Part shown: in pieces, positions 4,527-30,155 of the stretch
Layout: each line of letters begins with the position of its first letter
Numbering within the stretch: position 1 is the first letter of the stretch
Assembly: GCA_963726285.1 (NCBI GenBank)
Contig: CAVSBV010000004.1
Coordinates: 18,659-82,658 of the forward strand
Length of the DNA: 64,000 nt
Reading direction: 5' to 3'
Source of the DNA: Vulcanimicrobiota bacterium
GTDB taxonomy: Bacteria; Vulcanimicrobiota; Vulcanimicrobiia; Vulcanimicrobiales; Vulcanimicrobiaceae
Position numbers and translations under genes: made by a program
The notes under the pieces: generated by a model
What the model saw: only the letters and a program-made list of their open reading frames with translations
Database searches by the model: none
What the model was told of the DNA's origin: nothing

Positions 4527-4528
4527 GA

Positions 4529-11055: not shown

Positions 11056-11122
11056 CGAGTATGGACAGAATGAAATCGCGCGCGCGCCATCCGACGAACG
11101 CTCGTTAAGGAGTAAGGAGACC

Positions 11123-13089: not shown

Positions 13090-13110
13090 CACCAGCTACG
13101 AGACAAAGAG

Positions 13111-13149
13111 AAGAGCCCGGCAAAGGATCGCCCGGGCTCTTTCGTTTTC
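13111..13149. terminator. bidirectional rho-independent terminator candidate between convergent operons
   Basis: Perfect 10-bp stem aagagcccgg (13111-13120) / ccgggctctt (13132-13141) followed by tcgtttt. On the other strand it is followed by a T-rich run. Confidence 0.6.
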
Positions 13150-13172
13150 CGACGCAGGCTTGCGACGGAAAT

Positions 13173-13370
13173 CTATTTGTAGCGGTCACGGTTGAACCAC
13201 CACCGCAGTGCGTCTCGCGACGCGAACAGGTCCGTCCATCGGCCGCCGAAGAGAAAGTCAGCTACGATAAGAAAAACGTTCATACCATCGTACCGCCGTA
13301 ACTGCCGACGATTCTCGCCGGGCGTGCGCTCCGCGAGTGCGCGCGATAGTCGATCTTCGTACTCTCCCAT
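13173..13370 (-). CDS. small hypothetical protein, last gene of the 18.7-13.2 kb operon
   Basis: 65 aa. The start lies 3 nt after the stop of the upstream gene. One hydrophobic segment (VFLIVADFLFGG). Confidence 0.4.
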   Translation of the reverse strand: MGEYEDRLSRALAERTPGENRRQLRRYDGMNVFLIVADFLFGGRWTDLFASRDALRWWFNRDRYK

Positions 13371-13373
13371 ACG

Positions 13374-14354
13374 CTACATCTCTCCGAACATGTTGCCGCC
13401 GATGGACGGACCGCCGCCATAACCGCCACCGCCGCGATTCGGGAAGATGTGGCGCATGATGACCACCCCGAAGAACATGAAGATTGCGACGATGATCAGG
13501 AGCACCATGAAGATGCCACGAAACACGTTCTCCCCGACCGACCGGCGGTAGACGCCCGTATAGGGACCGGCGAATTGCCACTCGCCCGTCTGTTTATCGA
13601 GGTCGAGCATCGACGTAAACGACACCGTCTTGCCGACGAGCGCCGCGTAGTCACCGTACTTTGCGGCGCCCTGCGCGAAGACGTCGTACGTAGGCAGCGG
13701 TTCGATGGTGCCGTGCCACTTCACGACCGCGACGTCCTTATCTGCGGGCGTCAGCGCTGCAGAGTCGATCACCGGCAAGAGGTCGAGCAGGCGGACAGAT
13801 GAGAACACGGTCGCGCTTCCCGGCTTGCATGACATCACTGCGTAATTTACCGTACCGAGGGCCTGCGCATCGTAACGAGCAGTTCCGAACTTCGATGGAC
13901 AGATCACCGCATATTGCGCGTAGTCAAGGGCCAGGGCGCTGCGCTGCGACGTGTGTGTCTGCATCACGCCGTTGCTGTCGGTACTTTGCGAGGCCTGCGT
14001 GGTCGAGACGAAGAGCTTAGCTCCGTATTTGTCCACCGAAAGGTGGTCGAAGTCGTCGCAAAGCTGCCGCGCGAACGCGTCTGAACATTTCGTAGCCTGG
14101 TAGATGACATCGGCCGCCGTGTTCGTGCTGAACGCCTGCGGCTTCGCGTCGGGCTTCGTTGATACGTGCATGCCGACCAATTCGGCGACCCCGCCGGCGA
14201 ACACGAGCAAAACGAGCATGGAAAAAGACCACGCCGGGATACGCCACCATGTGCCACCGCGTTGCTTGTCGCGAACGATGCCGATGACGCCACGAATCCA
14301 GAGGACGAATACTGCGATCTCGACGATGAGTATGAGTATTTCCGAAGGCGACAT
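13374..14354 (-). CDS. membrane protein with a Gly-rich C-terminal tail
   Basis: 326 aa with AGGTGG upstream. Two N-terminal TM helices, a ~200-aa extracytoplasmic domain, a C-terminal TM helix (IFMVLLIIVAIFMFFGVVIM), then NRGGGGYGGGPSIGGNMF. Confidence 0.65.
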   Translation of the reverse strand: MSPSEILILIVEIAVFVLWIRGVIGIVRDKQRGGTWWRIPAWSFSMLVLLVFAGGVAELVGMHVSTKPDAKPQAFSTNTAADVIYQATKCSDAFARQLCDDFDHLSVDKYGAKLFVSTTQASQSTDSNGVMQTHTSQRSALALDYAQYAVICPSKFGTARYDAQALGTVNYAVMSCKPGSATVFSSVRLLDLLPVIDSAALTPADKDVAVVKWHGTIEPLPTYDVFAQGAAKYGDYAALVGKTVSFTSMLDLDKQTGEWQFAGPYTGVYRRSVGENVFRGIFMVLLIIVAIFMFFGVVIMRHIFPNRGGGGYGGGPSIGGNMFGEM

Positions 14355-14441
14355 TATTTCACCACCTGCACCGGATTCGGCGTACGCGTGGACTTCGAAT
14401 GCGCAGCAACGACTGCGGCGAGGACTGCGGAGGTTAGCATG

Positions 14442-14813
14442 TTACTGGCCTCCGGCGCGGCCCGTCGCCAGACAGTTCATCATGCGCTGCGCTTGTTCGT
14501 CCGCGGTCCGATCCGCTGTGACGTTGAAAGCGGTTGATGCAACCGTGGATGTCGATGAAGGGGCGCCTCGTGACGATTGGAACAGAAACGCAGCGAATGT
14601 CAGCGCCGTCGAAACGAAGACGTAGAGCGCGATTGCGCAGATGCTGACGAGGAGAAATGCTGGGAGACGCTTCTTGACGTAGGTCCATGCGTCCGCGTCC
14701 TCGGCTTTCTCGAACGAACGCTCGCGCTCGAACCACTCCGCGGAGAAGGGCGTTACGTCCCCGGTGCTGCGTTCGCGGATACGCTCGATCGCGTTCATGT
14801 AGGCGCTGCTCAT
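14442..14813 (-). CDS. membrane protein
   Basis: 123 aa from ATG 14813, with GGAGGA 10 nt upstream. One or two TM helices (LPAFLLVSICAIALYVFVSTALTFAAFLF). Confidence 0.55.
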   Translation of the reverse strand: MSSAYMNAIERIRERSTGDVTPFSAEWFERERSFEKAEDADAWTYVKKRLPAFLLVSICAIALYVFVSTALTFAAFLFQSSRGAPSSTSTVASTAFNVTADRTADEQAQRMMNCLATGRAGGQ

Positions 14814-14814
14814 G

Positions 14815-15288
14815 TTAGTGATTTCCTCCGTCCCAGCCGTTTGCGACCGGATTTGCACCGGCGAGAAGAGCGGTGTCTGTGGCGTTGCCGAGCGCGTGGC
14901 CCGCGGCCGAACCGAACACCCAATCTACGAACTTGCTCGCGCCCTCGACGAAGCGCACCGCAACTGGAAGCGTTTGATTGACACCGCTCGTGAACGAGCT
15001 TTGTGCCTTCGCCTCGGTATTGCGACAGGACAGATAAACCGTCGGCCCTCCGAGGACGAGTACGGCGAGCGCCGCGAGTTTCAAGTAATACATCTTTGTG
15101 TTTGTCCTTTGTGTCTTTGCTACGCGATGCGATGCGTTCGCATCCGTCGATGGATCGATCACATTTTTCAGGTCAAAAGTCAAGTAAAAGACCGTGTTGC
15201 TGGCCTGCATCGCGTCGGGGACGGCGAGCGTGTATGCCGTAAAGCGCGCGTCAATCACGATTCCGCTCCCGATCACCGAGGCTTTCAT
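14815..15288 (-). CDS. hypothetical protein with an internal hydrophobic/signal-like segment
   Basis: 157-aa ORF with high GC3 throughout. An alternative start at ATG 15093 would give MYYLKLAALAVLVLGGPTVYLSC (signal/lipobox-like). It overlaps the upstream gene by 38 nt if the long form is real. Confidence 0.45.
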   Translation of the reverse strand: MKASVIGSGIVIDARFTAYTLAVPDAMQASNTVFYLTFDLKNVIDPSTDANASHRVAKTQRTNTKMYYLKLAALAVLVLGGPTVYLSCRNTEAKAQSSFTSGVNQTLPVAVRFVEGASKFVDWVFGSAAGHALGNATDTALLAGANPVANGWDGGNH

Positions 15289-15487
15289 GGGCCATGTTCG
15301 TTCGGAACGCGAATCTCCAATCGTAGATACAGACCATGAGAGCTGTGACGATAATCCCGATGGTCTCGGGCCATGAGATGCTCGGGTTCGCGTAGACGCA
15401 GATGAGCGCCGCCGGGAGCCCGACGTACGTCAACGCTCGAAACGGCCAAAGGGCTTTTGCCATTTCTTCGAGTCTGTCGCCGGGCAT
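15251..15487 (-). CDS. small two-TM membrane protein
   Basis: 78 aa from ATG 15487, 5 nt after the upstream stop: MPGDRLEEMAKALWPFRALTYVGLPAALICVY...IGIIVTALMVCIY. Confidence 0.45.
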   Translation of the reverse strand: MPGDRLEEMAKALWPFRALTYVGLPAALICVYANPSISWPETIGIIVTALMVCIYDWRFAFRTNMAHESLGDRERNRD

Positions 15488-15492
15488 CGCGC

Positions 15493-16569
15493 TCACCAGT
15501 TGATGGAGGGCGCGATGGAACCCGGAGCGGGCGTCGGCAGCGTGACCGAAAGGGTCGGACTGGGAACGAACGGATTGATGGTGTAGCCCGGTCCGCGAGC
15601 GTACACGGACCCCGTAGCCGCGTTCGTGCTGACCACCTGGGCGTTGAGCGTATCCGTGCCCGTGCCCGTATAGCTTACGGTCTGATTGCACGCTGGCCAC
15701 GAATAGATCATCCAATACGACGACGACGGATTCGTCGACGCGCACGTCGTTCCAGAACCCGGGCCATCCTGCATCGAAAGCGTCGCCGTCGTGTTTGATG
15801 CCGTGGCGATGACGACGCCGTACTGATCGCCGTTTCCGTCTTGGTATGCTTCGGAGCAGTTGCCGATGTCGGAACCATTTGGTTGCGACGGGTTGCCGCA
15901 GCCCGAATAATCGCTCGCCGCTCCGACGATCTGATAGCCCTCCGCATCGTATGCCGCGAGCGAAAGCGTGCCGCTTCCGCCAGTGCCCGGCGTGAACACC
16001 CCGGATTCAGTCAGTTGGAAACCGTACGGAATGCCGCCGAGCGAAAGTTGAAGCGTATTCGCGTTGCCGATATTCCCGCTCGTCGAAAAGCCGTAACCGC
16101 TCGCATAGTCAAGCAAATTGCTGCTGAGAGCCGGCCCCGTACCATTCGCACCGGCGTACGTCGTCATGAGCGCTTCGAACGCCGTGTTCGTGAGGTATGG
16201 AAAGAAGATGCTCTCGACGCAGTATGTCGCGCCGTTGCTTTGCGAACAGCCCGGGGCGGTCGGCGTGAGGTTCCATGCGATGAGGCTGCCGTACGGCGTG
16301 TACGTCGTGCCGGGTGCTGGAAGCTGGCCGTTACTCATCGGCGCGGTCAGAATCTGCAACGTCGCCGATTCAGTCGCCGGCGAAATGTATGCGGGACGCT
16401 TGAGGGCGCCCGAAGACGACGATGCTTTCGATGGTATTTTGATGGTCAGCGTCTTCGTCGAGCCCGAAGTTTTCGCGCTCGATGTCGGAGGAACCGAGGG
16501 AGCCCCGCTGCCTCCAGAGCACCCCGCGATGAGAGCCGCGAACGACACGATTGCGAGATAGTGCTTCAT
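15493..16569 (-). CDS. secreted lipoprotein, function unknown
   Basis: 358 aa. MKHYLAIVSFAALIAGC lipobox, a Ser/Gly/Pro linker, then a Thr/Ser/Gly/Asn-rich beta-type body. ATGA overlap with the upstream gene. Confidence 0.7.
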   Translation of the reverse strand: MKHYLAIVSFAALIAGCSGGSGAPSVPPTSSAKTSGSTKTLTIKIPSKASSSSGALKRPAYISPATESATLQILTAPMSNGQLPAPGTTYTPYGSLIAWNLTPTAPGCSQSNGATYCVESIFFPYLTNTAFEALMTTYAGANGTGPALSSNLLDYASGYGFSTSGNIGNANTLQLSLGGIPYGFQLTESGVFTPGTGGSGTLSLAAYDAEGYQIVGAASDYSGCGNPSQPNGSDIGNCSEAYQDGNGDQYGVVIATASNTTATLSMQDGPGSGTTCASTNPSSSYWMIYSWPACNQTVSYTGTGTDTLNAQVVSTNAATGSVYARGPGYTINPFVPSPTLSVTLPTPAPGSIAPSINW

Positions 16570-17057
16570 GGCTTCCGTCCTTTCTCGTTCGGAACGACGA
16601 CTGTCGTTGTGTTGATAATTTCCAATTGCGCCGAATTACCGAAGCTGTCCGAGACCGTGGCATAGCAGGTTCCACCGTTCACGCTCGATCCTAAAATTGT
16701 CGAGTTCAAAATCGCGTAAGTCGCGACGCCCGAGCATCCCGATGCGGTGAATGCGCCGCTGTATCCGGGGTCCGAAATCGTCGCCGTGAAGGTTGCCGGC
16801 GCAGGCGCACCTGCGGCCGTCTGGTTCAAGTACACCACTGACCGAGAAATCGAGATCGGTCCGGGCGTCGGGACGCTCGTTGGCAAAGGGCCGGGTGTCG
16901 GTGAGTTTGTAGGCTGCGGTGAAGGCGACGATGTCGGTGCGCTGGTCGGATCGACGTTTGGCGTGATCGCGGTCGCGCCGGGAGCGAATGGCGACATGCC
17001 GCCGCCGCTGCACGCCGTGAGCGAAAGGATAGCGAAAAGCACGAAATGTTTACGCAT
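16566..17057 (-). CDS. secreted lipoprotein, function unknown
   Basis: 163 aa from ATG 17057 (GAGG upstream). MRKHFVLFAILSLTAC lipobox, then a Pro/Thr/Ser linker. Confidence 0.65.
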   Translation of the reverse strand: MRKHFVLFAILSLTACSGGGMSPFAPGATAITPNVDPTSAPTSSPSPQPTNSPTPGPLPTSVPTPGPISISRSVVYLNQTAAGAPAPATFTATISDPGYSGAFTASGCSGVATYAILNSTILGSSVNGGTCYATVSDSFGNSAQLEIINTTTVVVPNEKGRKP

Positions 17058-17379
17058 CTTCAACCTCGCGATCTACGCGGATGCAGCGCTTGTGTAGCCC
17101 GTGGACCTTTAGTGTTCGGGGAAAGTGTGGATTGAACGGGGCGATCTCGATGAGCGCCTCTAATCCGTCGTTGGCGCAACCGACGCGAAACGTCGCTTCG
17201 CCCTTCTCAATATCGTAGAGGGTGATCGTGCCGTTCGGATTGTAAGTCACTGCGCCGCCCGGCGACGTACTAGTCGGCGTCGCCCGCGGATTTTGCGGCA
17301 CGTGAGACTCGCACGCCGTCGAAGACATCAGCGCGAACAGCGCAGCGGCGATCTGCCTAAGCGCCAGCATTTGTTTCAT
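17050..17379 (-). CDS. small lipoprotein, function unknown
   Basis: 109 aa from ATG 17379 (ATGA overlap with the upstream stop). MKQMLALRQIAAALFALMSSTAC lipobox. Confidence 0.6.
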   Translation of the reverse strand: MKQMLALRQIAAALFALMSSTACESHVPQNPRATPTSTSPGGAVTYNPNGTITLYDIEKGEATFRVGCANDGLEALIEIAPFNPHFPRTLKVHGLHKRCIRVDREVEDA

Positions 17380-18131
17380 GGTTTGCCACCAGTCAATGGA
17401 ATCGAAGAGAAGTCTTGGCACGCCTTTATCGATGATGCGGAAACGTCGGGAGCGAACCAGATGTTGTTGAGCGACGACGTGCTGGCGTTGAGCATTCCGT
17501 ATTGCGAGACGAGCAACGAGCAATGTGCGTACTCGCGCGCGACGACGCGCTGGCCCGCGAGCCGACCGAACCACGTCGCCGCGCCCACGAGATGTGTGCC
17601 GGCTTCGAGGTAGTCGTAGCTCACCCGAGTCGCGACGGGCGCGCGATGCAGTGTGCTCGCGATGATCGCGTCCCACGCAAGACCACCGGCTACGAGTGTC
17701 GGCAAACCGCCGTGCGCACTAACCGCCGCCAGAGGGTCAATCTCAAATGAGTGGGGAGCGCCGAAGGAAAACGTGACGACGTTCGCCGGAACGTATGTCG
17801 GCGGAGCCGACCAACACTCTTGCATGCCCTGCCACGTTGTGCATCCTGTTTCGAGCGGGTGGACTGCATGCGTCCAGAGATCGGCGTACTGCGCGCGCGA
17901 GCCACGAAGCCCCACCGCCGTAATCACGCCATCTAGAAACTGCGTGCCGAGCTTCATGTAGAATGCGCGGCGTTCGACGGGATCGCGCGGCACGAAAGCG
18001 ATTCGACCGCAAAATACGCGATGCTTGCACGGGTCTTCCGGCCCCTTCGCCGAGATGTACGAAACGGTCGATGAAGGGGCGGGTGACGGCGTAGCGGTAA
18101 TTGCCGCGGCCGCTATGATTGCGCCCAGCAC
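17376..18131 (-). CDS. exported protein, function unknown
   Basis: 251 aa if started at GTG 18131 (TAGTG overlap with the upstream stop), giving VLGAIIAAAAITATPSP as a signal/anchor. The Arg-rich extension of the 280-aa ORF overlaps the upstream gene. Confidence 0.55.
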   Translation of the reverse strand: MLGAIIAAAAITATPSPAPSSTVSYISAKGPEDPCKHRVFCGRIAFVPRDPVERRAFYMKLGTQFLDGVITAVGLRGSRAQYADLWTHAVHPLETGCTTWQGMQECWSAPPTYVPANVVTFSFGAPHSFEIDPLAAVSAHGGLPTLVAGGLAWDAIIASTLHRAPVATRVSYDYLEAGTHLVGAATWFGRLAGQRVVAREYAHCSLLVSQYGMLNASTSSLNNIWFAPDVSASSIKACQDFSSIPLTGGKP

Positions 18132-18742
18132 TATTTCGGAAACTCTGTGTTGGCGGCGTTTTCGAGTTCGATTACGCCGTGCGCAGCGTTGCCGCCGGCG
18201 CGGTATCCGCACGGCCAACGGCGTGTGAGTTCATACCACGCATACGAAATCACGAGGTTCTCACCGACGTACGCGGCGGATGATTGGGAACCGAAGACGC
18301 GGATGCCGATGCTGCCGTGTCGAACGGCGTTACCTACCGACAGCCCGTTTGCAACGTCAGAGAGGCCGTCGAAACCGAGCGCGGCCTTATCGGGACACGC
18401 ATGCGACTTCGAGCCAATCTGCTCGACGTTTTGCGCAGCATCGTACGTCCACGACGTCGATCCGTTGCGACCGTCAAATGCGGCATTCGGATCGCCGCCG
18501 ACTGCCCACGAGAATTTCCATGGCGAGAACGGCTTCGGCGACGGGGTGACGAGGGCGCGGATCGTCGCTGCGTCAAACGCGAGGCCCGCGGGAAGCTGCG
18601 TGCCGGCTTGCGGTAACGAGCCGCTCGGCATCGAGACGTTCCCGAGCGTGGAGGTTACGGTTTGCGGAGGTAGCTGTACCGGCGTCGGTGAGGGAGAAGG
18701 CGATACTATTACGATCGCTGCGAGTGCAAAGGAAGCGAACAT
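18131..18742 (-). CDS. exported protein, first gene of the operon, function unknown
   Basis: 203 aa. Hydrophobic N-terminus MFASFALAAIVIVSPSPSP with a G-rich SD-like run upstream. Confidence 0.6.
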   Translation of the reverse strand: MFASFALAAIVIVSPSPSPTPVQLPPQTVTSTLGNVSMPSGSLPQAGTQLPAGLAFDAATIRALVTPSPKPFSPWKFSWAVGGDPNAAFDGRNGSTSWTYDAAQNVEQIGSKSHACPDKAALGFDGLSDVANGLSVGNAVRHGSIGIRVFGSQSSAAYVGENLVISYAWYELTRRWPCGYRAGGNAAHGVIELENAANTEFPK

Positions 18743-19094
18743 TATTCGTCGCCCCCGCCGACGCCGATGTTACAGACGCCGACGAAGTCCCCGCTGATAT
18801 CGGATGTGAATGGAGCCATGCTCGAGACGCTACCCCGCGATTGTGAAAAGAGCCGGCCGTCGCGTCGTAGCGACCTCCGCTTGCTGCTCTCTACGCGGAG
18901 CGGTGCGGCCCGCGAACTTGGGCGCGCATATTCGTTTAGTAATTGCGGCGAACGGGTCGCCGCGCTTCGTGAGTCTAGTTTACGGGATCATTGCGATGGA
19001 TCGCAACCTGCGGATCGATACTTTAACGCATTGCCACGCATCGTTGCGCAGCGGTCGTGCTATATTTCGATCCGATTATGACTGCGAAAAGTAA

Positions 19095-19271
19095 ATCGGC
19101 GAAGGGGGCCGGGCGAAGAGCATCATCCTCGATTCCGAGACCGACGCGATGCTGGACGAACTCGTTGGTGTGCTCTATATGCCAAGAGAAAGACGTGCGG
19201 CTCTCAGCCGCTCCGAGGTCGTGCGGCGACTCATCCGCGACGCGCACGGGAACGTGGCCCGCAAGAGGTAA
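19095..19271 (+). other. ribbon-helix-helix (CopG/antitoxin-like) reading frame without a canonical start codon
   Basis: The frame after TAA 19092-19094 reads IGEGGRAKSIILDSETDAMLDELVGVLYMPRERRAALSRSEVVRRLIRDAHGNVARKR, stop 19269-19271. The first ATG/GTG/TTG (at MLDEL) falls after the predicted beta-strand. Confidence 0.3.
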
Positions 19272-19359
19272 GGTCCTGCGCGGGATCCGATGAAAGGCGG
19301 GCCGTACGGCTCATCTTCGTGAGCAGGTCGACAGGCGCCGCGGAAAGCATTTTCACAAA

Positions 19360-19815
19360 ATGACTAGACGTACTAAAGGGCTCTTATTGCTTGTGGCGAT
19401 AGCGTGCGTCACTTTCCCTTCGAGACTTCTCGCGCAGACTGTTCCGATGGAGAAGTTTACCGCCGACGAAAAGGCGTATCCGTCCAGCGTTGTAGCCGCC
19501 GACCGGAAATGCATCCTCACCGATCCTTCGCAGCACGACGAAGTAATCAAGGCGTGCGCGACGGCCGCGAATCTCATCGCGAAATTCGCCGTCGACCATC
19601 ATGGTAGCTTGTCGAATGACCAGATGGCTTGGGGTGTCATGCAGGAGGCGGAGAACAACTCCCAGGCCAGCAGCGCGGCGTGTCAGGCCGGAGCGGCGGA
19701 TATAGCGAACCGATTCATGAGTCGCGTACAGTACGAATATCAAACTGTCGCTGCGACGAAATCGGCCTACAGCGCGGAAGCGCAACAACGCTTGACCCAC
19801 CTGCAGTCCTGTTGA
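19360..19815 (+). CDS. secreted Cys-containing protein, function unknown
   Basis: 151 aa with the signal peptide MTRRTKGLLLLVAIACVTFPSRLLAQ. Confidence 0.6.
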   Translation: MTRRTKGLLLLVAIACVTFPSRLLAQTVPMEKFTADEKAYPSSVVAADRKCILTDPSQHDEVIKACATAANLIAKFAVDHHGSLSNDQMAWGVMQEAENNSQASSAACQAGAADIANRFMSRVQYEYQTVAATKSAYSAEAQQRLTHLQSC

Positions 19816-20513
19816 TCGACGCGAAGGCACTTGCCGCCGAGCGTTGGTTCGGGTACGGCCGATGGGATGCGCCTTATTGGTTCGTTGGAATGGAACCTGG
19901 CGGCGACGACACGCATGCGTCATACGACGCCTGGCTCGCGCTAGGCGCCGGTGAACTCATCGATTGCCGCTCGCATCACCAATGGGAACTTGAAACCAAA
20001 GGAATCGATAACCCCGATTGGACGAAATGGCACCGACGCGAGAGGCCGAACGTCACGCAGTCGACGTGGAGGTCGCTGATACAAGCCCTGCTCGCCTTCA
20101 AAGGCGAGCCTTCCGATCTCGAATCGGTGCGAGTCTATCAGCGCGATCGCTGGGGGATGCTTGCCGACGAGACGGCGGTCATCGAATTGAACGCACTCCA
20201 CGCGCCGAGCAGCGCGGCGAGAGTTGATCGTGAAACGCATCGCCCGCAGCGCATTCGTACGATCCGTGAACGCATGGCGCAGTTTCGACCGACGTTTGCC
20301 GTTTTCTACGGCAACGGCTACCGGCCGTCCTACGAGCAGATCGTCGGCGGGCCATTTGGTGAGGACGGGTTCGCGCGTAGCGGCAATACGATTTGCGCTC
20401 TCGTGCCGCACCCCGCGCGATCTGGAAAGAGTAGAGAGTGGTGGGACGAATTCGGGCAGCGTTTGCATTCGACGTCTTTGATTCACACGTCGTCGAATGC
20501 GTCGTCTGAATAG
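19812..20513 (+). CDS. hypothetical protein with uracil-DNA-glycosylase-superfamily-like motifs
   Basis: 233 aa if started at TTG 19812 (TTGA overlap with the upstream stop). The alternative start is the ATG of VGMEPGG. YWFVGMEPGG resembles UDG motif A (GExPG). ALVPHPARSG resembles motif B (HPS). Spacing and the intervening hydrophobic strands fit the fold. Confidence 0.5.
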   Translation: MIDAKALAAERWFGYGRWDAPYWFVGMEPGGDDTHASYDAWLALGAGELIDCRSHHQWELETKGIDNPDWTKWHRRERPNVTQSTWRSLIQALLAFKGEPSDLESVRVYQRDRWGMLADETAVIELNALHAPSSAARVDRETHRPQRIRTIRERMAQFRPTFAVFYGNGYRPSYEQIVGGPFGEDGFARSGNTICALVPHPARSGKSREWWDEFGQRLHSTSLIHTSSNASSE

Positions 20514-22363
20514 ATGATTTGCCAGGGCTGGACCTGATCGACCAGTCCTTCTCTGAATCGCTCGGGCTTCATCGCGTCACGCATTCTGACTGGAATCTCC
20601 GTGATCGTCAGCGGCGCAGTCATTGCTGCTTGTATCGAACGAATGAGAACCTCTTCGATGAAGCGATTCAAGCGATTCAGAATAGCCGGAATGAAGAAGG
20701 TCAACGGCAGCCCGAACACCTCGGGCTCCCTGACATCGAACTGATCCCCGGGTTTGCGCACGTACTGAATACGTGGCGCGACGAACGGCTTGTGCTCTAA
20801 GTTGTTGCGAGCCACCGTGAGGGGCTGCAACCACTTCCGCGTCTCGCGCAGATAGTCGGAGAGCATCGGATCCGTCGTTTCAAGCGCCGTCGCGCCCGCT
20901 TCGAAGTTCTTATCCTCCTGGAACATGAACCCGATGTCGATTCCAAGGAGTTTGGTGAGGCCCTGAAACTGCTTTGCCGTGTTGGCGCCGTCTCGAATAA
21001 TGATCTCGATATTGTGCGAGAGCGCGTCGTCGATGGTCTCATCGACGTGAATTGCGTTCTGATAGCGGATGATCTCTCCACGAGAAATGCGGCCGACGTG
21101 ATCGTTCCAGAGGTCTAGCGTTTCCCGACCGATGCGTCGAAGCGTCGCCAGGTCGTTCAAGGCGGAGTGATACGCGGTGTTAAACGCTTCGACGTCGGCT
21201 GGCTTACTGAGAACTAGATCGCGCAGGTGGAGCGGCGTCATCCACAGTCGGGAGACGAACGGCGTCGACGTGCCTTCGTCCGCAAGATGAGCTATCGTAA
21301 ATTCCTGGTGCGGCTGTCGAACCGTCAGATTGCTACGCTTGGCGATCTGCTCGGCGAACGTCTCGAAGTCATCGAACGACATGGGTAACACCGAGGAAAT
21401 CTGCTGGTCGTTCTTGAGTTGGGTCGTCATCGTCGAAACGCGGATCGGTGCGAAGGTCAGCAGGCCTTCGAGCGGCAAGGGACCTTCGAGGATCACGATG
21501 CCGCCGTCTTGCCATCGTTGATAGAACAGCTTGCCGAGAAGCTCTTTTTCCGACGATTCGATGAGGAAGGGCGGCGTCGCTACCGGCTCGGTCTTTTGAA
21601 GTTCGACGAGACGACCCGCGAGGTCGAACTGATAAAGAATGACCACATCCTTGTTCGGGGGAACGCCCACGACAGCGGCGTTCATGTCGGGACGTTCGAA
21701 TGAAGGCGCGTAGAACGCCAACTGGCCGATGATGAAGCCAATCAGCCGGTTCAATGAAAACGCGCTCGTCGACGTCGTCACCATGTGCAACAGCGCGGGC
21801 GAAACGAAATCACGCTTTCCTCGCGCGGGAGGTAGCCAGTCGCCTGGCATCGTCAGATCCGGCCCGAACGTCACGAGATAGTTGATCGTGCCTCGGTTCA
21901 GCACGGCTACCATGTCCGGCCACAGATCGGCTGACCTCTCGCTATTGAAGCGCCGCATCATCTGAGCTATTGAGTCCAACGATTGCGCGGAACTCGCGGC
22001 TATGACCGCTCCGAGCGTGACGGTCGAACCACTCGGGTCCTTGCTCAGCGTCTTTTCCAACGCTTTGACTTGCGCGATGCATTCGTAGCCGGCGCGGAGA
22101 TTCGCCTCGTCCAACTGCACGCATGCGAACGCAGCAACCGCGACGGCGTCAGCATCGATTTCGCCGTCTTGAATCGGCGAAGTCGCGATGACCGTGACGG
22201 GACCGACGCGCGTTCCCTTTGCATCGCGAATCGTCGCTCGACCGACGTGAAACGACGTCAGCCGGTCGGCGAGAGTCTTAGTAAGTCCCTCGATGAAATC
22301 GTCGCCGGTAAGAGTGCTAAGGTTTCGGCCGGCGTCCCGTATGATCTCGTGCAGTGCCAGCAT
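20483..22363 (-). CDS. large orphan protein with a C-terminal HEPN-like Rx4H motif
   Basis: 626 aa. There are no NTPase motifs and I recognise no family. RNNLEH is encoded at 20809-20792 within a helical C-terminal region. It sits directly upstream of, and divergent from, the type I R-M operon. Confidence 0.75.
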   Translation of the reverse strand: MLALHEIIRDAGRNLSTLTGDDFIEGLTKTLADRLTSFHVGRATIRDAKGTRVGPVTVIATSPIQDGEIDADAVAVAAFACVQLDEANLRAGYECIAQVKALEKTLSKDPSGSTVTLGAVIAASSAQSLDSIAQMMRRFNSERSADLWPDMVAVLNRGTINYLVTFGPDLTMPGDWLPPARGKRDFVSPALLHMVTTSTSAFSLNRLIGFIIGQLAFYAPSFERPDMNAAVVGVPPNKDVVILYQFDLAGRLVELQKTEPVATPPFLIESSEKELLGKLFYQRWQDGGIVILEGPLPLEGLLTFAPIRVSTMTTQLKNDQQISSVLPMSFDDFETFAEQIAKRSNLTVRQPHQEFTIAHLADEGTSTPFVSRLWMTPLHLRDLVLSKPADVEAFNTAYHSALNDLATLRRIGRETLDLWNDHVGRISRGEIIRYQNAIHVDETIDDALSHNIEIIIRDGANTAKQFQGLTKLLGIDIGFMFQEDKNFEAGATALETTDPMLSDYLRETRKWLQPLTVARNNLEHKPFVAPRIQYVRKPGDQFDVREPEVFGLPLTFFIPAILNRLNRFIEEVLIRSIQAAMTAPLTITEIPVRMRDAMKPERFREGLVDQVQPWQIIYSDDAFDDV

Positions 22364-22410: not shown

Positions 22411-22644
22411 ATGAGCAGGCGGTACCAGGAGATCGAAGAGCGACGCGCGCGCGACATCGCTGGGGCGAAGACGACGCTCAAGGCGCTGGGTGATCGGGAG
22501 CGAGCCTATCTAATGATGTGGCTCCTTAAATATTTCGAGGATTCGGGGACGATGCGGTCACCGCAGGCGGGGAAGGCGCGGCGGACCATCGTCCTCGATG
22601 GCGAGGAGTTTTGGCTCGTGCGTATGCCTGACCGGCAACGCTAA
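22411..22644 (+). CDS. small hypothetical protein upstream of hsdR
   Basis: 77 aa from ATG 22411: MSRRYQEIEERRARDIAGAKTTLKALGDRERAYLMMWLLKYF... No family recognised. Confidence 0.45.
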   Translation: MSRRYQEIEERRARDIAGAKTTLKALGDRERAYLMMWLLKYFEDSGTMRSPQAGKARRTIVLDGEEFWLVRMPDRQR

Positions 22645-22738: not shown

Positions 22739-25700
22739 GTGATGTCGCTACCCGGGTCGGCGAATTTCGCTTTTCTCACGCGCTATGATGAGGCATTAGT
22801 CAGGGTTGCAGCCCTGGCCGAGCGCTATTTTCCGGACGATCCCGTGACCTCTGTCATGAAGGTTCGCCAATTCGGGGAACTGCTCGCGCGCGAGACCGCG
22901 GCGCGGCTCGGAGTCTTTCTCTCGGGCGAGGAATCGCAGGTCGATCTCCTCGCGCGCCTCAGTCGCGAGAGCGGCGTGCCCCCTGAGGTGACGGATCTCT
23001 TTCACTATATACGCCGGATGGGCAACGTCGCGATCCACGAGCATCGGGGTGACCATACTGTATCTCTTGCAGCGTTGAAGATGGCTTGGCAGCTTGCGGT
23101 TTGGTTTCATCGCACGTTCGGCGACCGCAGTTTCAAATCGGGTGCATTCGCTCCGCCCAAACCGCCGCCGGATCCGACCGTTACTCTTCGGGAACAGTTG
23201 GAGGCACTTCGCAAGGAGCGCGATGCAAGTATGTCCGCCGCCGAGTTGGCCGAAGCGCGTGCAGCCGAAGCGGAGGCTGCGCGTCTCGGTGCCGAGGAGC
23301 GCGCGCGAAAAGAAGCTGAGGAGCGCGCGTTTTGGGAGCAATATGCGGCGGAAGCTGAAGCGAAGGCGGCGCCGAAGTTCGCCATGCTGCAAGCAGAGAC
23401 TATGGCGTTGCCTCTTGCGCAACGATCCGAGCGGCGCTCCGCTGTACTCCAAGCCGCGAGTGGCATCGTTCTGGACGAAGCGGAAACCCGCGTGCTTATC
23501 GATGAACAGTTGCGTTTACGTGGCTGGGAAGCCGATACGCAACGGATCCGATACTCCGCGGGCGTACGTCCGGCGAAGGGGCGGAATCTCGCCATTGCGG
23601 AGTGGCCTACCGAAAGCGGTCCTGCGGATTACGCGCTGTTCATAGGCACGACGTGCGTCGGGGTAATCGAAGCGAAGCGAAAGCGTAAGAACGTTTCTGC
23701 TGCAATTGATCAAGTCGCGAGGTACGCTCAATGCTTCCGCGCAGAAGCTGGGATCGATTTCGCTCGGGGCTCACCGTGGCCGGCGGAATCTAGTGCGGAA
23801 TCACAGCTTCCGTACCGGATTCCGTTCCTCTTCGCGACGAATGCGCGACCGTATCTGAAGCAGATCGAAACAGAATCCGGCATCTGGTTTCGCGATGTCC
23901 GTCAACCGACGAACCTACGTCGACCGCTCGTCGATTGGTTCACGCCGCAGGGTCTGGAAGAACTCATTGGCACGGATAAGGCGAAGGCGCATGCCGACCT
24001 CGAAGCGATGCCATTCGACTTCGGCTTTCAACTGCGCGATTATCAGGAACGCGCCATTCGAGCAGTCGAGGACGCCGTTTCGGACGATGCCGCACGGGCG
24101 GCGCTTCTTGCGATGGCGACCGGCACTGGCAAGACGAAACTCGCGATCGCGATGCTTTACCGACTGCTAGCCTCGAAGCGATTCCGCCGCATCTGCTTCA
24201 TCGTGGATCGTCGCGCTCTCGGAGAGCAAGCGGAAGGCGAATTCACGACGACGCGCGTCGTCGGAGTTCGCACGTTCGCAGACATCTTTGGTTTGAAGGG
24301 GCTTGACGATATCGGTATCGACCCCTCGACCAAGGTGCATATCTGTACCATTCAAGGACTCGTAAAACGCGTGTTGTTCGCGGCCGATCCGAAGGACGTG
24401 CCGTCGGTCGACCAATACGACCTCATGGTCGTCGACGAATGTCACCGCGGATACCTTCTGGATCGCGAGATGTCCGAGACTGAACTCGTCTTCCGCGACG
24501 AGGCGGACTACGTCAGCAAGTATCGCCGCGTATTGGAACACTTCGACGCGGTGAAGATCGGCCTCACGGCGACGCCGGCGCTGCACACCACGGAGATATT
24601 CGGCGACCCGATCTTCACGTATTCATATCGTGAAGCCGTCGTCGACGGTTGGCTCATCGACAGCGAGCCACCGATTCGCATACAGACCGCGCTCTCCGCC
24701 GACGGGATCCACTTCAAGCGCGGTGAGGAACTTCGGCTCTTCGATCCCAAGACGGGGGATCTCGATCTGGCGCATGCGCCCGACGATCTGGACTTTGACA
24801 TCGCCGAGTTCAACAAGCGCGTCTTGACTCGCGAGTTCAACCGCGTAGTGGCTGAGGAGTTGGCAAAGCACATCGACCCTAGTCTGCCGGGAAAGACGCT
24901 CGTGTTCGCGGCAACGGATGGTCACGCCGACATCCTCGTCGACGAATTGAAGAAAGCGTTCGAAGTTCAGTACGGCTCCATCGATGACGCGGCAGTGAAG
25001 AAGATTACCGGCAGCATCGACGCGCCCGGAAAGGCGATCAAGCGCTTCCGCAATGACGCTAATCCCAAGGTCGCAGTCACCGTGGACCTGCTGACGACGG
25101 GCGTTGACGTCCCGTCCATCATGAACCTCGTCTTCGTCCGCCGAGTGAATAGCCGCATTCTCTTCGAGCAGATGCTCGGGCGAGCCACGCGCAGGTGTGA
25201 CGAAATCGGGAAGGAGACGTTCCGCATCTTCGATGCTGTGGGGATCTACGACGCGTTAAGAGACTTCACGACGATGAGGCCTGTGGTCGTAAATCCGTCG
25301 ATCTCATTCGAGACGCTTTTCCACGAATTGACGGAAGTCTCCGACGAGAAGCACCGTGTGCTCGTTCGCGACCAAATTCTCGTGAAGCTCCGCCGCCGAA
25401 TCAGTCGGCTTCATGAAAAGGCCCTGGAACAGTATGAGGCCCTGGCCGGCGAAACGCCGCAAGACACGTTGAAGCGAATCGCGGGCGCGACTCCAGAGGA
25501 CCTTGCAAAGTGGGCACAGGCGAAGACTGGACTGGGTAAGATTCTGGATTGGGAACCGGAGGGCGCCGGCGCTGCGAGCGTTTCTTTGGTCGTCTCCACG
25601 CATCGCGACGAGCACCGCTCGACGACTGTCGGTTACGGTGGTGCGGAACGTCCCGAAGACTACCTCGTAGCCTTCGCAGCGTTCGTTCGGGACAACGAAA

Positions 25701-26155
25701 ACAAGATCGCGGCGCTGCGCATCGTAATGCAGCGGCCGCGCGATCTCTCACGCGAGTCGCTGAAGGAACTGGCGATGGCGCTCGACGCCAACGGTTTTCC
25801 GGAAGCCATGATACGTGCAGCGTTTCGCGACGCGCGCAACGAGGACATCGCCGCATCTCTGGTGGGATTCGTGCGACGGGCCGCGCTCGGCGACGCGCTC
25901 GAGCCGTGGGCGGACCGCGTCCATCGCGCGGTTGCGCGCATCCTAAAGCGACAGGCCTGGACTCAACCGCAGCGCCAATGGCTTGAGCGGATAGCCCGAC
26001 GAGTGGCGGAGATGGGCGTCGCTGACCGGACGGCTCTGGATGAAGAGCAATTCAAAGTGGCCGGCGGCTTCGCGCGACTCAACAAGATCTTCGATGGTAA
26101 GCTTGAGATGATTCTTGCCGACATCAACGACGAAGCATGGAAGGAAGCAGGTTGA
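22739..26155 (+). CDS. hsdR: type I restriction enzyme R subunit with an extra N-terminal DUF4145-like domain
   Basis: 1138 aa. N-terminal FHYIRRMGNVAIHEH (DUF4145/HEPN-like R..GN..aH), then an Ala/Glu coiled coil. PD-(D/E)xK nuclease ADYALFIG...GVIEAKRK. Helicase motifs MATGTGKT and VVDECHRG. EcoEI-type C-terminal helical domain. Confidence 0.9.
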   Translation: MMSLPGSANFAFLTRYDEALVRVAALAERYFPDDPVTSVMKVRQFGELLARETAARLGVFLSGEESQVDLLARLSRESGVPPEVTDLFHYIRRMGNVAIHEHRGDHTVSLAALKMAWQLAVWFHRTFGDRSFKSGAFAPPKPPPDPTVTLREQLEALRKERDASMSAAELAEARAAEAEAARLGAEERARKEAEERAFWEQYAAEAEAKAAPKFAMLQAETMALPLAQRSERRSAVLQAASGIVLDEAETRVLIDEQLRLRGWEADTQRIRYSAGVRPAKGRNLAIAEWPTESGPADYALFIGTTCVGVIEAKRKRKNVSAAIDQVARYAQCFRAEAGIDFARGSPWPAESSAESQLPYRIPFLFATNARPYLKQIETESGIWFRDVRQPTNLRRPLVDWFTPQGLEELIGTDKAKAHADLEAMPFDFGFQLRDYQERAIRAVEDAVSDDAARAALLAMATGTGKTKLAIAMLYRLLASKRFRRICFIVDRRALGEQAEGEFTTTRVVGVRTFADIFGLKGLDDIGIDPSTKVHICTIQGLVKRVLFAADPKDVPSVDQYDLMVVDECHRGYLLDREMSETELVFRDEADYVSKYRRVLEHFDAVKIGLTATPALHTTEIFGDPIFTYSYREAVVDGWLIDSEPPIRIQTALSADGIHFKRGEELRLFDPKTGDLDLAHAPDDLDFDIAEFNKRVLTREFNRVVAEELAKHIDPSLPGKTLVFAATDGHADILVDELKKAFEVQYGSIDDAAVKKITGSIDAPGKAIKRFRNDANPKVAVTVDLLTTGVDVPSIMNLVFVRRVNSRILFEQMLGRATRRCDEIGKETFRIFDAVGIYDALRDFTTMRPVVVNPSISFETLFHELTEVSDEKHRVLVRDQILVKLRRRISRLHEKALEQYEALAGETPQDTLKRIAGATPEDLAKWAQAKTGLGKILDWEPEGAGAASVSLVVSTHRDEHRSTTVGYGGAERPEDYLVAFAAFVRDNENKIAALRIVMQRPRDLSRESLKELAMALDANGFPEAMIRAAFRDARNEDIAASLVGFVRRAALGDALEPWADRVHRAVARILKRQAWTQPQRQWLERIARRVAEMGVADRTALDEEQFKVAGGFARLNKIFDGKLEMILADINDEAWKEAG

Positions 26156-27615
26156 ACCTGAACAGCAACGGTACGCGCGAAATCGTCACGAAGCTCTGGA
26201 ATCTCTGTCATATTTTGCGTGACGGTGGAATTACGTATCAGGCGTACGTCACCGAACTCACTTATCTGCTTTTTCTGAAAATGATGCAAGAGACGGAACG
26301 CGAGGCGGCGCTACCAAAAGGCTTTCGGTGGAACGACCTGATATCGCGCGAAGGCGAAGACCTTTTGACGTTCTACCGCACTTTGCTCCTCAAACTGGGT
26401 ACTGAAACAAAAGGCATAGTCCGAGAAATATTTGCTGATGCTCAGACCGGTTTGAAGCGGCCCACAGATCTTAAGGAACTCGTCACGCAAATCAATCGCC
26501 TGGATTGGTTCTCGGCGAAACAAGACGGCCTCGGCGATCTCTATGAGGGGTTGCTGGAGAGGAACGCAAACGAAAAGAAGTCGGGTGCCGGGCAATACTT
26601 CACGCCCCGCCCCTTGATTGATTGCATGGTGCGGGTACTAAGGCCCGAGCCTGGTGAGATCGTCCAAGACCCCGCTGCCGGAACAGGCGGATTTCTAATT
26701 GCCGCGGATCGCTTCATTAAGGAACGCACGGATGATCTCTTCGCTTTAAAGGCTTCAGAACAGCGCTTTCAACGTGAAGATGCGTTTCGCGGTTTGGAAC
26801 TCGTGCCCGACACGCATCGGATGCTTCTGATGAATTTAATGCTTCACGACATCGGCGGAAGTCACGTGCTCGGCGGCGATGCACTGAGTCCCGCTGGTGA
26901 GGCTCTCGGAAAAGCTGATTTAATACTTACAAATCCACCTTTTGGGACAAAAAAGGGCGGAGGTCGCCCAACTCGGACCGACTTCAGTATCACGGCTGAT
27001 TCCAGCAATAAGCAGCTCGCGTTTATTGAGCACGTAGTGCGCGCATTGAGGCCTGGGGGTCGCGCGGGGGTTGTTGTCCCTGACAACGTTCTCTCGGGCG
27101 AAGTCGGGCATGAATTACGTTCATGGCTAATGGAATTATGCGACGTCCACACCATTCTACGATTACCGCTAGGGTTGTTCTATGCCCAAGCAGTGAGAAC
27201 CAACGTCGTTTTCTTCTCTCGTGGGCAATCCGAAAAACGAAACACGTCGACAGTGTGGGTGTACGACCTTCGGGCTGGCCAACCGGCATATGGCAAGAAG
27301 CGCCCATTCAGCGCAGCGGACCTGGCTGAGTTTGTGAAATGCTACGGCGACGATCCTCTCGGAAAAGCTGCGAGAAGTGACTTGGGGATAGACGGTCGTT
27401 TCAAAGCATTTTCGCGCGACGAAATCGCTCGCCTTGGAGACGAGCTTCACTTGACGTGGCTCCGTAGCAACGATGAAGAGGCTGAATACTCGCTAGAAGA
27501 GCCTGAGGATATCGCCGAAGCGATGTTAGAACACTTGAATCAGGCAACCACAGAAATCGAGAAACTGGCAGCTTCGATCCGCGAAATGCCGCTGGAGTTG
27601 CTTGATGAACACTGA
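26137..27615 (+). CDS. hsdM: type I R-M N6-adenine DNA methyltransferase subunit
   Basis: 492 aa. HsdM N-terminal helical domain (KLWNLCHILRDGG), SAM motif DPAAGTGGFL, catalytic NPPFG. An alternative TTG start at 26152 would give a TTGA overlap with hsdR. Confidence 0.9.
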   Translation: MEGSRLNLNSNGTREIVTKLWNLCHILRDGGITYQAYVTELTYLLFLKMMQETEREAALPKGFRWNDLISREGEDLLTFYRTLLLKLGTETKGIVREIFADAQTGLKRPTDLKELVTQINRLDWFSAKQDGLGDLYEGLLERNANEKKSGAGQYFTPRPLIDCMVRVLRPEPGEIVQDPAAGTGGFLIAADRFIKERTDDLFALKASEQRFQREDAFRGLELVPDTHRMLLMNLMLHDIGGSHVLGGDALSPAGEALGKADLILTNPPFGTKKGGGRPTRTDFSITADSSNKQLAFIEHVVRALRPGGRAGVVVPDNVLSGEVGHELRSWLMELCDVHTILRLPLGLFYAQAVRTNVVFFSRGQSEKRNTSTVWVYDLRAGQPAYGKKRPFSAADLAEFVKCYGDDPLGKAARSDLGIDGRFKAFSRDEIARLGDELHLTWLRSNDEEAEYSLEEPEDIAEAMLEHLNQATTEIEKLAASIREMPLELLDEH

Positions 27616-28795
27616 TGCGGTCCCGTTAGAGGTCGCGTTGAGTGATGTCGCCACGCCCATCAATGAGCGAGCATCGCCGCGTGAAGCACCGGACATCCCC
27701 TTTATCGGATTAGAGCACATCACCTCTTATTCCGGTCAGCTTATCGGCACTGGGACGACGGCTGACGTTTCAAGTAGCGTAGCAAGATACTCCGAAGGAG
27801 ACCTTCTTTATGGTCGCTTACGGCCATATCTTAATAAGGTGGTTGTGGCTCCGTTTGATGGCGCGGCGTCGGCTGAGTTTATTGTGCTGAGACCCATGTC
27901 CGAAAACGTGTCCACGGAATACCTTAGGCTCGTTCTCCGATCGCCGATGTTTCTTGCGTTCACGTCGCAATTGGATCGTGGCGACAGACCACGGGTTAAG
28001 TGGGAGCAGATCAATAGATTTCGCTTCGAGTTGCCGTCGCCTTCAGATCAAAGGGCGATAGTCGACACAACTGCTCAAATGATGGAGCGGGTTAAATCTG
28101 CTTCTTGCGAGGTCAAGAAGTCAGTGGATCTATCAAGGCTACTTCTTGCACGGTTTACAGCGAACATTTTCGAGACGGCTAGCGAGGAGCATTGGCCAGA
28201 GATTCCTTTCGGACAATTGATTGCTGAGATGCGAAATGGGCTAGCGACGAAGCCGGCAAATGAGCCGCCTGGAATTCCAATTCTGAGGATTTCATCTGTA
28301 CGTTCCTTTACCGTCAACCTCGCCGACGTGCGTTACCACACGCTACTAAACGGCGACGCAAAGTATTTGCTGCGCAATAGAGATTTGCTGTTCGTGCGCT
28401 TCAACGGAAATGCGGAACTGGTTGCTGGATGCGGGATGGTGAGAGAAATTACGGGGGATATCGTATACCCAGATAAACTGATTCGCGTACGTGTTGATGA
28501 ATCGAGGGTCTTGCCGGAATACATCGAGTTGATATTCGCTGGCGAGAAAATGCGTCAGGATGTGTCAGTATTCGTTCGCACTGCCGCTGGTCAGCATGGT
28601 ATCTCGGGAGGCGATCTAAAGCGCGTGTCCCTCCCAATCCCTCCGATTGGAACGCAGCGAAGGATCGTGAAGCGCTTTGCCGTGGTCCGAGACGGAATAC
28701 TGCGTGTGTTGCATCAATGCGACCGCGCTGCTGCTCTTGCTTCAAAGATGGAAGGCGCGATCCTTGCCAGAGTCGTGACCGTGGCAAGCATTTAA
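27605..28795 (+). CDS. hsdS: type I R-M specificity subunit
   Basis: About 396 aa from ATG 27605 (TTG at 27602 also possible), overlapping the hsdM end. Two target-recognition halves each carry the GDLLYGRLRPYLNKV / RDLLFVRFNGNAELVG type motif. Confidence 0.85.
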   Translation: MNTDAVPLEVALSDVATPINERASPREAPDIPFIGLEHITSYSGQLIGTGTTADVSSSVARYSEGDLLYGRLRPYLNKVVVAPFDGAASAEFIVLRPMSENVSTEYLRLVLRSPMFLAFTSQLDRGDRPRVKWEQINRFRFELPSPSDQRAIVDTTAQMMERVKSASCEVKKSVDLSRLLLARFTANIFETASEEHWPEIPFGQLIAEMRNGLATKPANEPPGIPILRISSVRSFTVNLADVRYHTLLNGDAKYLLRNRDLLFVRFNGNAELVAGCGMVREITGDIVYPDKLIRVRVDESRVLPEYIELIFAGEKMRQDVSVFVRTAAGQHGISGGDLKRVSLPIPPIGTQRRIVKRFAVVRDGILRVLHQCDRAAALASKMEGAILARVVTVASI

Positions 28796-30111: not shown

Positions 30112-30155
30112 GTCACACTACAAAACGGCCCGGAATGGGGGCCGGAGGAGCAACA

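Follow-up and report, generated by a model that had tools for sequence, protein, structure and literature searches.

The window analysed here is a stretch of 64,000 nucleotides from a Vulcanimicrobiota bacterium (GenBank assembly GCA_963726285.1, contig CAVSBV010000004.1, positions 18,659 to 82,658 of the forward strand). On its minus strand, next to a type I restriction–modification (R-M) operon, lies a gene for a protein of 626 amino acids (aa), the target of this work, which an earlier note on the sequence had described as an orphan and a candidate defence effector with a HEPN-like motif, RNNLEH. The open reading frame (ORF; 20483–22363) is as that note gave it, and close homologues share the same start Met. 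Its codon-position GC content (0.61/0.41/0.72) is like that of hsdR and of the relaxase gene of the window, and the motif lies exactly at aa 519–524 (20792–20809). An identical protein is present in public data without a name.

A full-length AlphaFold2 model built on the family alignment has a mean predicted local distance difference test score (pLDDT) of 83.6 and is disordered only at aa 183–185 and 352–367. The protein very probably has a three-domain architecture, in which a NucC-like N-terminal domain and a beta-rich middle domain are followed by a helical C-terminal domain of about 260 aa. The features of the gene are as follows:

20483..22363, minus strand: target gene, ATG start, 626 aa, three domains; clade A of an uncharacterised NucC-derived family
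21668..22363, minus strand: N-terminal domain (aa ~1–232), NucC/DUF6602-type restriction-endonuclease fold, catalytically degenerate
22196..22198, minus strand: V56, aligned with the catalytic Asp73 of NucC; Asp lost
22121..22129, minus strand: F79-A80-C81, aligned with E104-x-K106 of NucC; both catalytic residues lost
21311..21667, minus strand: middle beta-rich domain (aa ~233–351), from the secondary structure of the model
21263..21310, minus strand: low-confidence linker (aa 352–367, pLDDT <50) with the invariant E363-G364 ('ADEGTS')
20486..21262, minus strand: C-terminal helical domain (aa 368–626), a long-helix bundle with beta-hairpin inserts
20963..20974, minus strand: K464..Q467, on the long helix preceding the motif helix
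20792..20809, minus strand: R519-N-N-L-E-H524, HEPN-like R-N-x-x-[ED]-H motif at the end of helix 499–522 and the start of the next loop
20672..20677, minus strand: N563-R564, on the long helix following the motif

The statement that the protein belongs to no family did not hold, as its N-terminal domain is NucC/DUF6602-like and a large family was found by profile search. Direct searches of Pfam, NCBIfam, PADLOC and PDB sequences with the target were empty, which explains the orphan verdict. A word-indexed search found 23 relatives only. When a profile built from these 23 was run against 1.84 billion cluster representatives, 1433 proteins were retrieved at E ≤ 1e-3, 793 at ≤ 1e-10 and 374 at ≤ 1e-30, many of them full length (~640 aa). 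A scan of one genome per species located 57 family loci in Eremiobacterota (75–77% identity), Acidobacteriota, Planctomycetota, Desulfobacterales, alpha- and beta-proteobacteria, Nitrospirota, a Peribacteria candidate and one archaeal metagenome-assembled genome. The family is thus scattered over at least eight phyla, and it occurs mainly in soil and peat Acidobacteriota, Eremiobacterota, Planctomycetota and Proteobacteria. A phage or plasmid origin was rejected, as no relatives were found in IMG/VR, among the INPHARED phages or among the PLSDB plasmids. No description of the family was found in the literature on DUF6602, 'NucC-like' proteins and related topics.

Two of the closest relatives look damaged. 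In P0005 (L080:2356–4230) the C-terminal ~45 aa are frameshifted and unrelated, and a break close to the 5′ end divides the gene of P0007 (L012:9977–11882) into two ORFs. These copies are possible cases of pseudogenisation, which is often seen for toxic genes. Most database entries consisting of the N-terminal and middle domains only appear to be truncated or frameshifted fragments. A split version of the system, with one gene for the N-terminal and middle domains followed by a second for the C-terminal domain, was considered and rejected, as three stand-alone C-domain genes (at loci L068–L070) have no such gene upstream.

The N-terminal domain and its relation to NucC

NucC is the cyclic-triadenylate-activated DNA endonuclease of the cyclic-oligonucleotide-based antiphage signalling system (CBASS) and of type III CRISPR (clustered regularly interspaced short palindromic repeats). 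The N-terminal ~230 aa of the target share the fold of NucC (PDB 6p7o, 6q1h, 6uxf and 7zgw) and detectable sequence homology with it. A Foldseek search of the PDB with the full model returned 14 significant matches, all of them NucC (E 8e-9 to 8e-7, probability 1.0), with template modelling scores normalised to NucC of 0.58–0.66 over ~254 columns; the next match had an E-value of 0.07. A profile of aa 1–235 matched NucC chains in the PDB at E 1.9e-6, 2.8e-5 and 4e-4. Some members of the family are also matched over aa ~20–105 by the Pfam model PF20247 (DUF6602), P0111 with 33.5 bits and P0015 with 26.2 bits at a gathering threshold of 27. DUF6602 is a PD-(D/E)xK domain, found for example in the integron-cassette defence gene 'Damona', and is reported to be a distant relative of RmuC (bioRxiv 10.1101/2024.07.02.601686). 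The two families overlap, but the DUF6602 model spans only ~100 of the 626 aa of the target, which itself gave no match to it and fell below the reporting thresholds.

The active site of NucC, IDx30EAK, consists of Asp73, Glu104 and Lys106; a D73N mutant is inactive, and the enzyme operates as trimers and hexamers (bioRxiv 10.1101/694703). In a HMMER alignment the target has V56, F79 and C81 at these three positions. Among 65 full-length cluster representatives, Asp or Glu is found at position 56 in 26% and at position 79 in 58%, and Lys at position 81 in 5%. The earlier note had seen no PD-(D/E)xK nuclease in the protein. The motif is indeed absent; the fold is not, since a degenerate restriction-endonuclease-fold domain is present and had been overlooked.

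The family comprises a majority clade A, which includes the target, and a minor clade B. At position 79, Asp is found in most of clade A outside the subclade of the target. The Arg that binds cyclic triadenylate in NucC (R53) corresponds to S37 in the target and mostly to Pro or Ala in clade A, and is Arg in 100% of clade B. For two further residues of the binding pocket, Y81 and T226, the alignment is unreliable. Clade-B relatives thus keep both IDx30E[AV]K and the Arg of LPxR[YF], whereas the target has equivalents of none of Asp73, Glu104, Lys106 and R53. In contrast to NucC, the target is also 2.6 times longer, has two extra domains, and is encoded neither with a cGAS/DncV-like nucleotidyltransferase (CD-NTase) nor with a CRISPR locus. 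The target is a NucC homologue but not a NucC, as it has neither the catalytic motif nor the ligand-binding Arg nor the operon context. The family as a whole is an uncharacterised group of horizontally mobile, ~630-aa proteins descended from a NucC-type DNase.

The NucC ancestry is in favour of a second-messenger effector, in which a CBASS or type III CRISPR cyclase would supply a cyclic oligonucleotide in trans, and its binding to the N-terminal domain would activate the C-terminal site. A CD-NTase near one homologue points the same way. At locus L013 it is encoded at 7291–8358 on the minus strand, ~1.5 kb upstream of a clade-A homologue (9875–11920) and divergent to it, and is CdnC/CdnD-like (PDB 6p8u/6p82, E 3e-9; PADLOC cyclase, 4.8e-128). 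Cyclases of the CdnC/CdnD type belong to NucC-type CBASS operons. Between the CD-NTase and the family member lies a gene for a 365-aa repeat protein, and the two ORFs downstream of the cyclase have no PDB relatives. However, a cyclase was found in only one of ~50 non-redundant loci, in which all neighbours within 6 kb were clustered all-against-all. No cyclase was identified in the window, and the R53 equivalent kept in clade B is replaced in clade A, including the target. A second-messenger effector is therefore very improbable.

The middle domain, which has no match in Pfam, carries a set of near-invariant residues (Y244, Q245, W284, D286-G287-G288, G294, P297 and S323) that are among the most conserved of the family and are common to both clades. 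In the linker that follows, E363 and G364 are invariant, and it is here that the stand-alone C-domain proteins of the family begin, with 'M..K.xDEGTSxPF'.

The C-terminal domain and the R519/H524 site

Modelled alone with AlphaFold2, the C-terminal domain (aa 366–626) reached a pLDDT of 92.5 and a predicted template modelling score of 0.88. The model consists of long helices, two beta-hairpin inserts and a small C-terminal sheet, and it bears out the helical C-terminal region proposed earlier. Its helices span aa 388–427, 445–472, 478–497 (a helical insert), 499–522 and 554–580. Both this model and the full-length one place the motif at the C terminus of helix 499–522, its His falling among the first residues of the loop that comes next.

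The worry that a six-residue motif might be a chance match can be set aside, as RNNLEH is strongly conserved across homologues. Both R519 and H524 occur in all of the close homologues that extend over the site (18/18) and in all stand-alone C-domain proteins of ~280 aa (28/28). Among the full-length cluster representatives, R519 is found in 63/65 (97%), H524 in 61/65 (94%) and N520 in 82%, and H524 is the sole His conserved at 90% or more in the family. On the preceding long helix, K464 is present in 92% of the family and is not kept in three clade-B representatives, and Q467 is specific to clade A.

The site resembles that of the HEPN RNases of abortive-infection and toxin systems (AbiD/F, AbiJ, AbiU2, RloC/PrrC, DUF4145, Swt1-like and HepT) in its R-N-x3-H form with Asn after the Arg, in its position at the end of the core helix and in the next loop, and in the insert between the first helical hairpin and that helix. 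The target also has a fused restriction-endonuclease-fold domain and R-M neighbours, both of which are typical of HEPN proteins, as are a motif at the end of the core helix or the start of the next loop and inserts between helices 2 and 3 (PMC3710099). The predicted helix order fits the published HEPN scheme (PMC3710099). This fit of motif position and helix order, taken from the models, would be consistent with a HEPN fold and is not proof of it. Unlike known HEPN domains, the C-terminal domain of the target has much longer helices (24–40 residues), beta-hairpin inserts, Lys and Gln on helix 2 and a spacing of 3–5 between Arg and His. The domain is not filed as a HEPN member because profile and structural similarity to the known HEPN families was sought and not found. 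What stands of the HEPN-like reading is a conserved site with Asn after the Arg at the expected position; membership of the HEPN fold found no search match. If its site is that of an RNase, the domain would be either a very divergent new HEPN family or one with a convergent HEPN-like site. R519/H524 is a probable, though far from certain, catalytic site.

Two clades and a proposed function

The clades were compared in an alignment of genome-locus proteins and cluster representatives, numbered as in the target. Clade B comprises P0087, P0088, P0110, P0127, L046, L050, L051, L053, L056–L059, L061 and L062. These 14 sequences were recovered with D56, E79 and K81, in the N-domain motif '..HQDVIIYD..(x27)..(I/M)EVK(S/A)..LNK..', and P0088 alone matched NucC at E 1.8e-14 with both D..EVK and the LPxR[YF] Arg (R53) aligned. 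All 12 clade-B proteins that reach the C-domain site are without R519, N520 and H524 and read F/A/L-R/K-x-x-R-Y/V/G instead; the remaining two (P0127 and L062) are truncated before it. The reverse is seen in clade A, where Lys81 is missing in every locus that reaches the motif and R-N-x-[LIVM]-[ED]-H is present in all of those loci except the degenerate L037 and L055. Clade-B proteins are ~630–700 aa long, have the same middle and C-terminal domains, and share no adjacent cyclase family among their loci. They would be NucC-type DNases outside CBASS and CRISPR operons.

A position-by-position contrast of 34 clade-A with 12 clade-B proteins gave the same division. Positions conserved in clade B only lie nearly all within aa 3–229 and include R37, D56, D61, E79, K81 and K86. 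The polar residues conserved in clade A only, Q467, D498, R519, N520, E523, H524, D563 and R564, are found in the C-terminal domain. Common to both clades are D47, K100, N140, the middle-domain motifs, E363-G364, R372, R409, Y504, R509, E570, E589, R595, R602 and F603. The two clades share a scaffold, on which each has a single intact predicted catalytic site. This reciprocal pattern is the best available evidence that R519/H524, with R564 and Q467, may be catalytic rather than structural, and it suggests that the effector site may have shifted out of the DNase domain and into the helical one. R564 is likely to be part of the same putative site as R519/H524, because it is invariant (100%) in clade A and has been lost from clade B.

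The same comparison bears on whether the N-terminal domain might still be the effector, as a DNase with a rearranged site (for example D47, D72, K100, N140 and D150), the Arg and His of the C-terminal domain serving to bind a ligand or nucleic acid. That catalytic residues can migrate is well established for PD-(D/E)xK enzymes. D47, K100 and N140 are conserved in both clades, D150 and K100 reach 94% and 92% of the 65 full-length representatives, and Asp79 persists in most of clade A outside the target's subclade. However, the target is without all three canonical residues (V56, F79 and C81), and D47 and K100 look structural or DNA-binding, because clade B conserves them too and true NucC has equivalent residues. 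In clade A, conservation specific to the N-terminal domain breaks down and a new polar cluster is seen in the C-terminal domain instead, and the stand-alone C domains keep the Arg and His at 100%. A rearranged DNase is thus an unlikely explanation.

A role with neither catalysis nor conflict, in which the protein would be a structural or DNA-binding accessory and R..H would be kept for folding or binding, is improbable. It would agree with the absence of any match between the C-terminal domain and defence or nuclease models, and with the position of some loci among housekeeping genes. Under it, however, the clade-specific loss of R519, N520, E523, H524 and R564 together, in proteins in which the full DNase triad is present, is hard to explain, and a patchy phyletic spread with mobile-element association is typical of conflict genes.

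The preferred reading is that the target is a candidate single-gene defence or toxin protein of the RNase type. R519-N520-x-x-E523-H524, with R564 and Q467, would make up the catalytic centre of a HEPN-type RNase that works without metal. The middle domain and the dead NucC-like domain would be a scaffold for nucleic-acid binding, oligomerisation or sensing, and would keep the RNase inactive until it is released by a trigger, for example an invading phage or plasmid. Activation would lead to RNA cleavage and growth arrest, an abortive-infection or toxin-like outcome benefiting the integrative element that carries the gene, and the protein would work as a single-gene unit. Taken as a whole chain, with trigger and growth arrest included, this proposal is tentative and falls a little short of an even chance.

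Several results weigh against it. No profile or structure search connected the C-terminal domain with a HEPN family, confident though its model is. Its best Foldseek matches had E-values of 0.64 (PDB) and 0.56 (BFVD) with no HEPN protein in the top 50, profile searches of the PDB with two alignments gave no match, and Pfam, NCBIfam and PADLOC gave no HEPN match for the target. A Pfam scan of 21 stand-alone C domains, member by member, yielded scattered noise only, including one HEPN_Apea match at E 0.064 (1/21) and one 23S_rRNA_IVP match at E 0.052. Single-sequence hhalign comparisons of the domain with a Swt1-like HEPN protein, an Abi_C protein and the DUF4145 domain of the neighbouring HsdR gave probabilities below 1%; such comparisons, like Foldseek, are weak tests for divergent helical bundles. 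Helix 2 of HEPN domains usually bears an acidic residue, and the corresponding helix of the target has a conserved Lys and Gln in its place. Arg and His are three residues apart (Rx3H) in three close homologues and at one genome locus, and five apart (Rx5H) in a few further sequences. The reciprocal clade pattern amounts to essentially one phylogenetic split and not to many independent events, and the N-terminal domain may hold a residual non-canonical nuclease site, given that D47, K100 and N140 are retained in both clades. The target has no match in PADLOC-DB v2.0 at E ≤ 1, the family is missing from the phage and plasmid collections named above, and homologues P0023 and P0014 have plain housekeeping surroundings.

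It is conceivable, if doubtful, that clade A represents a new immune or toxin family in which the NucC DNase was retired to a scaffold and an R-N-x3-H RNase site arose or was unmasked, its sister clades being DNases still. If true, this would show in nature how an effector site can be swapped inside a single protein scaffold. If confirmed, an uncharacterised family of hundreds of sequence clusters would join the nuclease-based conflict systems, and the NucC scaffold would be seen to be reusable outside cyclic-nucleotide signalling. The two clades offer a natural experiment on the exchange of effector activities as defence proteins evolve, one having an intact DNase motif and no R-H site and the other a dead DNase and an R-H site. 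The C-terminal domain, with its confidently predicted fold and no match in PDB or BFVD, would either extend HEPN or define a new RNase-like fold.

Genomic context

No conserved partner gene was found. In the neighbour clustering of the ~50 loci any one neighbour family was common to at most four, and the idea of a conserved partner was rejected on this basis. The absence of a shared neighbour indicates that the gene acts alone and that its linkage to R-M is particular to the window. Conserved linkage to R-M genes had been raised earlier as a sign of a defence gene; adjacency to type I R-M was found only in the window. Among the two closest genes on either side, which encode 149 proteins in total, mobile-element and defence genes are mixed with ordinary metabolic ones. 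The former include resolvases, Fic/SoFic, AbiEi/AbiEii, RmrA, QatC, one CD-NTase and a terminase. Individual homologues have the following surroundings:

P0003: AbiE, SNF2 helicase, relaxase and TraG
P0008: BrxC of the bacteriophage exclusion (BREX) system and a WYL regulator
P0005: TrbI, SLT and a 1279-aa Mrr_cat protein
P0009: serine-recombinase islet between housekeeping genes
P0020: RadC and DNA ligase
P0017: IS200 transposase, adjoining rpoBC
L068:2958–3821 (stand-alone C-domain gene): Mu-type transposase and UvrD helicase
L069:2804–3763 (stand-alone C-domain gene): Abi_C protein
L070:4234–5103 (stand-alone C-domain gene): Swt1-like HEPN protein (HEPN_Swt1)

The last three genes encode proteins of ~280–320 aa with R/H intact and no N-terminal partner, which speaks for a self-sufficient C-terminal domain. 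The defence-type context proposed in the earlier note was borne out in part. The gene is accessory, mobile and often near mobile or defence genes, and several homologues lie in housekeeping surroundings. It is a mobile accessory gene, often but not always found in defence or mobile-element neighbourhoods.

In the window, the genes surrounding the target are these:

22739..28795, plus strand: hsdR-hsdM-hsdS type I R-M operon (Pfam), divergent to the target; context only
22411..22644, plus strand: 77-aa gene between the target and hsdR, co-oriented with hsdR
19629..20513, plus strand: convergent gene, overlapping the 3′ end of the target by 31 nucleotides; real start probably ~19812
2526–4757: TraG/TraD-like coupling protein
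7531–11052: relaxase (MobA/VirD2-AAA_30)

The divergent arrangement with hsdRMS was confirmed by Pfam. Position beside this operon presumably reflects defence-island clustering and not a functional partnership. The mobile-element setting was likewise upheld, since the TraG/TraD-like protein and the relaxase mark a conjugative or mobilisable element and chromosomal flhA is reached only from ~36.9 kb. The 77-aa ORF in the gap was confirmed as well. It was also called on an independent Logan assembly of the same sequence, a 68% identical copy lies beside the homologue at L011, and it has no match in Pfam. The convergent gene, which had been called UDG (uracil-DNA glycosylase)-like, is probably a real overlapping gene, but the UDG fold found no support in Pfam, NCBIfam or PDB searches; the gene has no match in these or in PADLOC. 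Its frame is 62–81% identical at the amino acid level in L012, against 41% for the frame on the opposite strand. A co-directional gene for 175 aa (19941–20468, minus strand), called on the Logan assembly, was rejected as a partner, because the opposite-strand frame is the conserved one. Codon-position GC at 19384–20513 is atypical in both frames.

These small neighbours bear on another rival, in which the same RNase-type toxin would serve for addiction or stabilisation of the conjugative element and not for phage defence, the convergent or the 77-aa gene being the antidote. The target is conjugative-element cargo here, as are homologues at two other loci. Outside the window, the convergent gene recurs in L012 alone and the 77-aa gene in L011 alone, both among the closest relatives, and P0005 and P0007/L012 are frameshifted or truncated, as toxic genes become. 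However, a two-gene toxin–antitoxin module would call for a small partner gene, and none is family-wide in the ~50 loci, where a neighbour family is shared by four at most. Moreover, many copies are chromosomal islets without conjugation genes. An addiction role is accordingly rather unlikely, though it is not negligible.

Other observations concern the island itself. HsdR carries a DUF4145 match (PF13643) at aa 27–107 (22817–23059), with 25.8 bits at a cut-off of 23.1. DUF4145 is a HEPN family often fused to R-M helicases (PMC3710099), and the locus may hold two HEPN-type modules side by side, that of HsdR and that of the target. Directly after hsdS lies a pair of overlapping genes (28792–30111, minus strand, and 29958–30911, plus strand). 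One encodes a TcmP 'three-Cys-motif partner' protein (TIGR04474, E 1e-41; GMT-wHTH; PADLOC candidates PDC-M30A/M41A) and the other a DUF5131 (phage Gp37/Gp68-like) protein. Together they may form a second candidate for defence within this island.

Between the relaxase and the target, a run of ORFs of ~8 kb (11123–19300), including 13374–14354, 15493–16569, 16566–17063, 17050–17676 and 18131–18742, has no Pfam, NCBIfam or PADLOC match other than a weak one to LPD7, a polyvalent-protein family, in a 526-aa protein at 11123–12703. The run is uncharacterised cargo of the element. Beyond the element, among the chromosomal genes of the window, 41983–43959 (plus strand) encodes a HIRAN-domain DEAD/ResIII helicase with a Cdc6-like winged helix.

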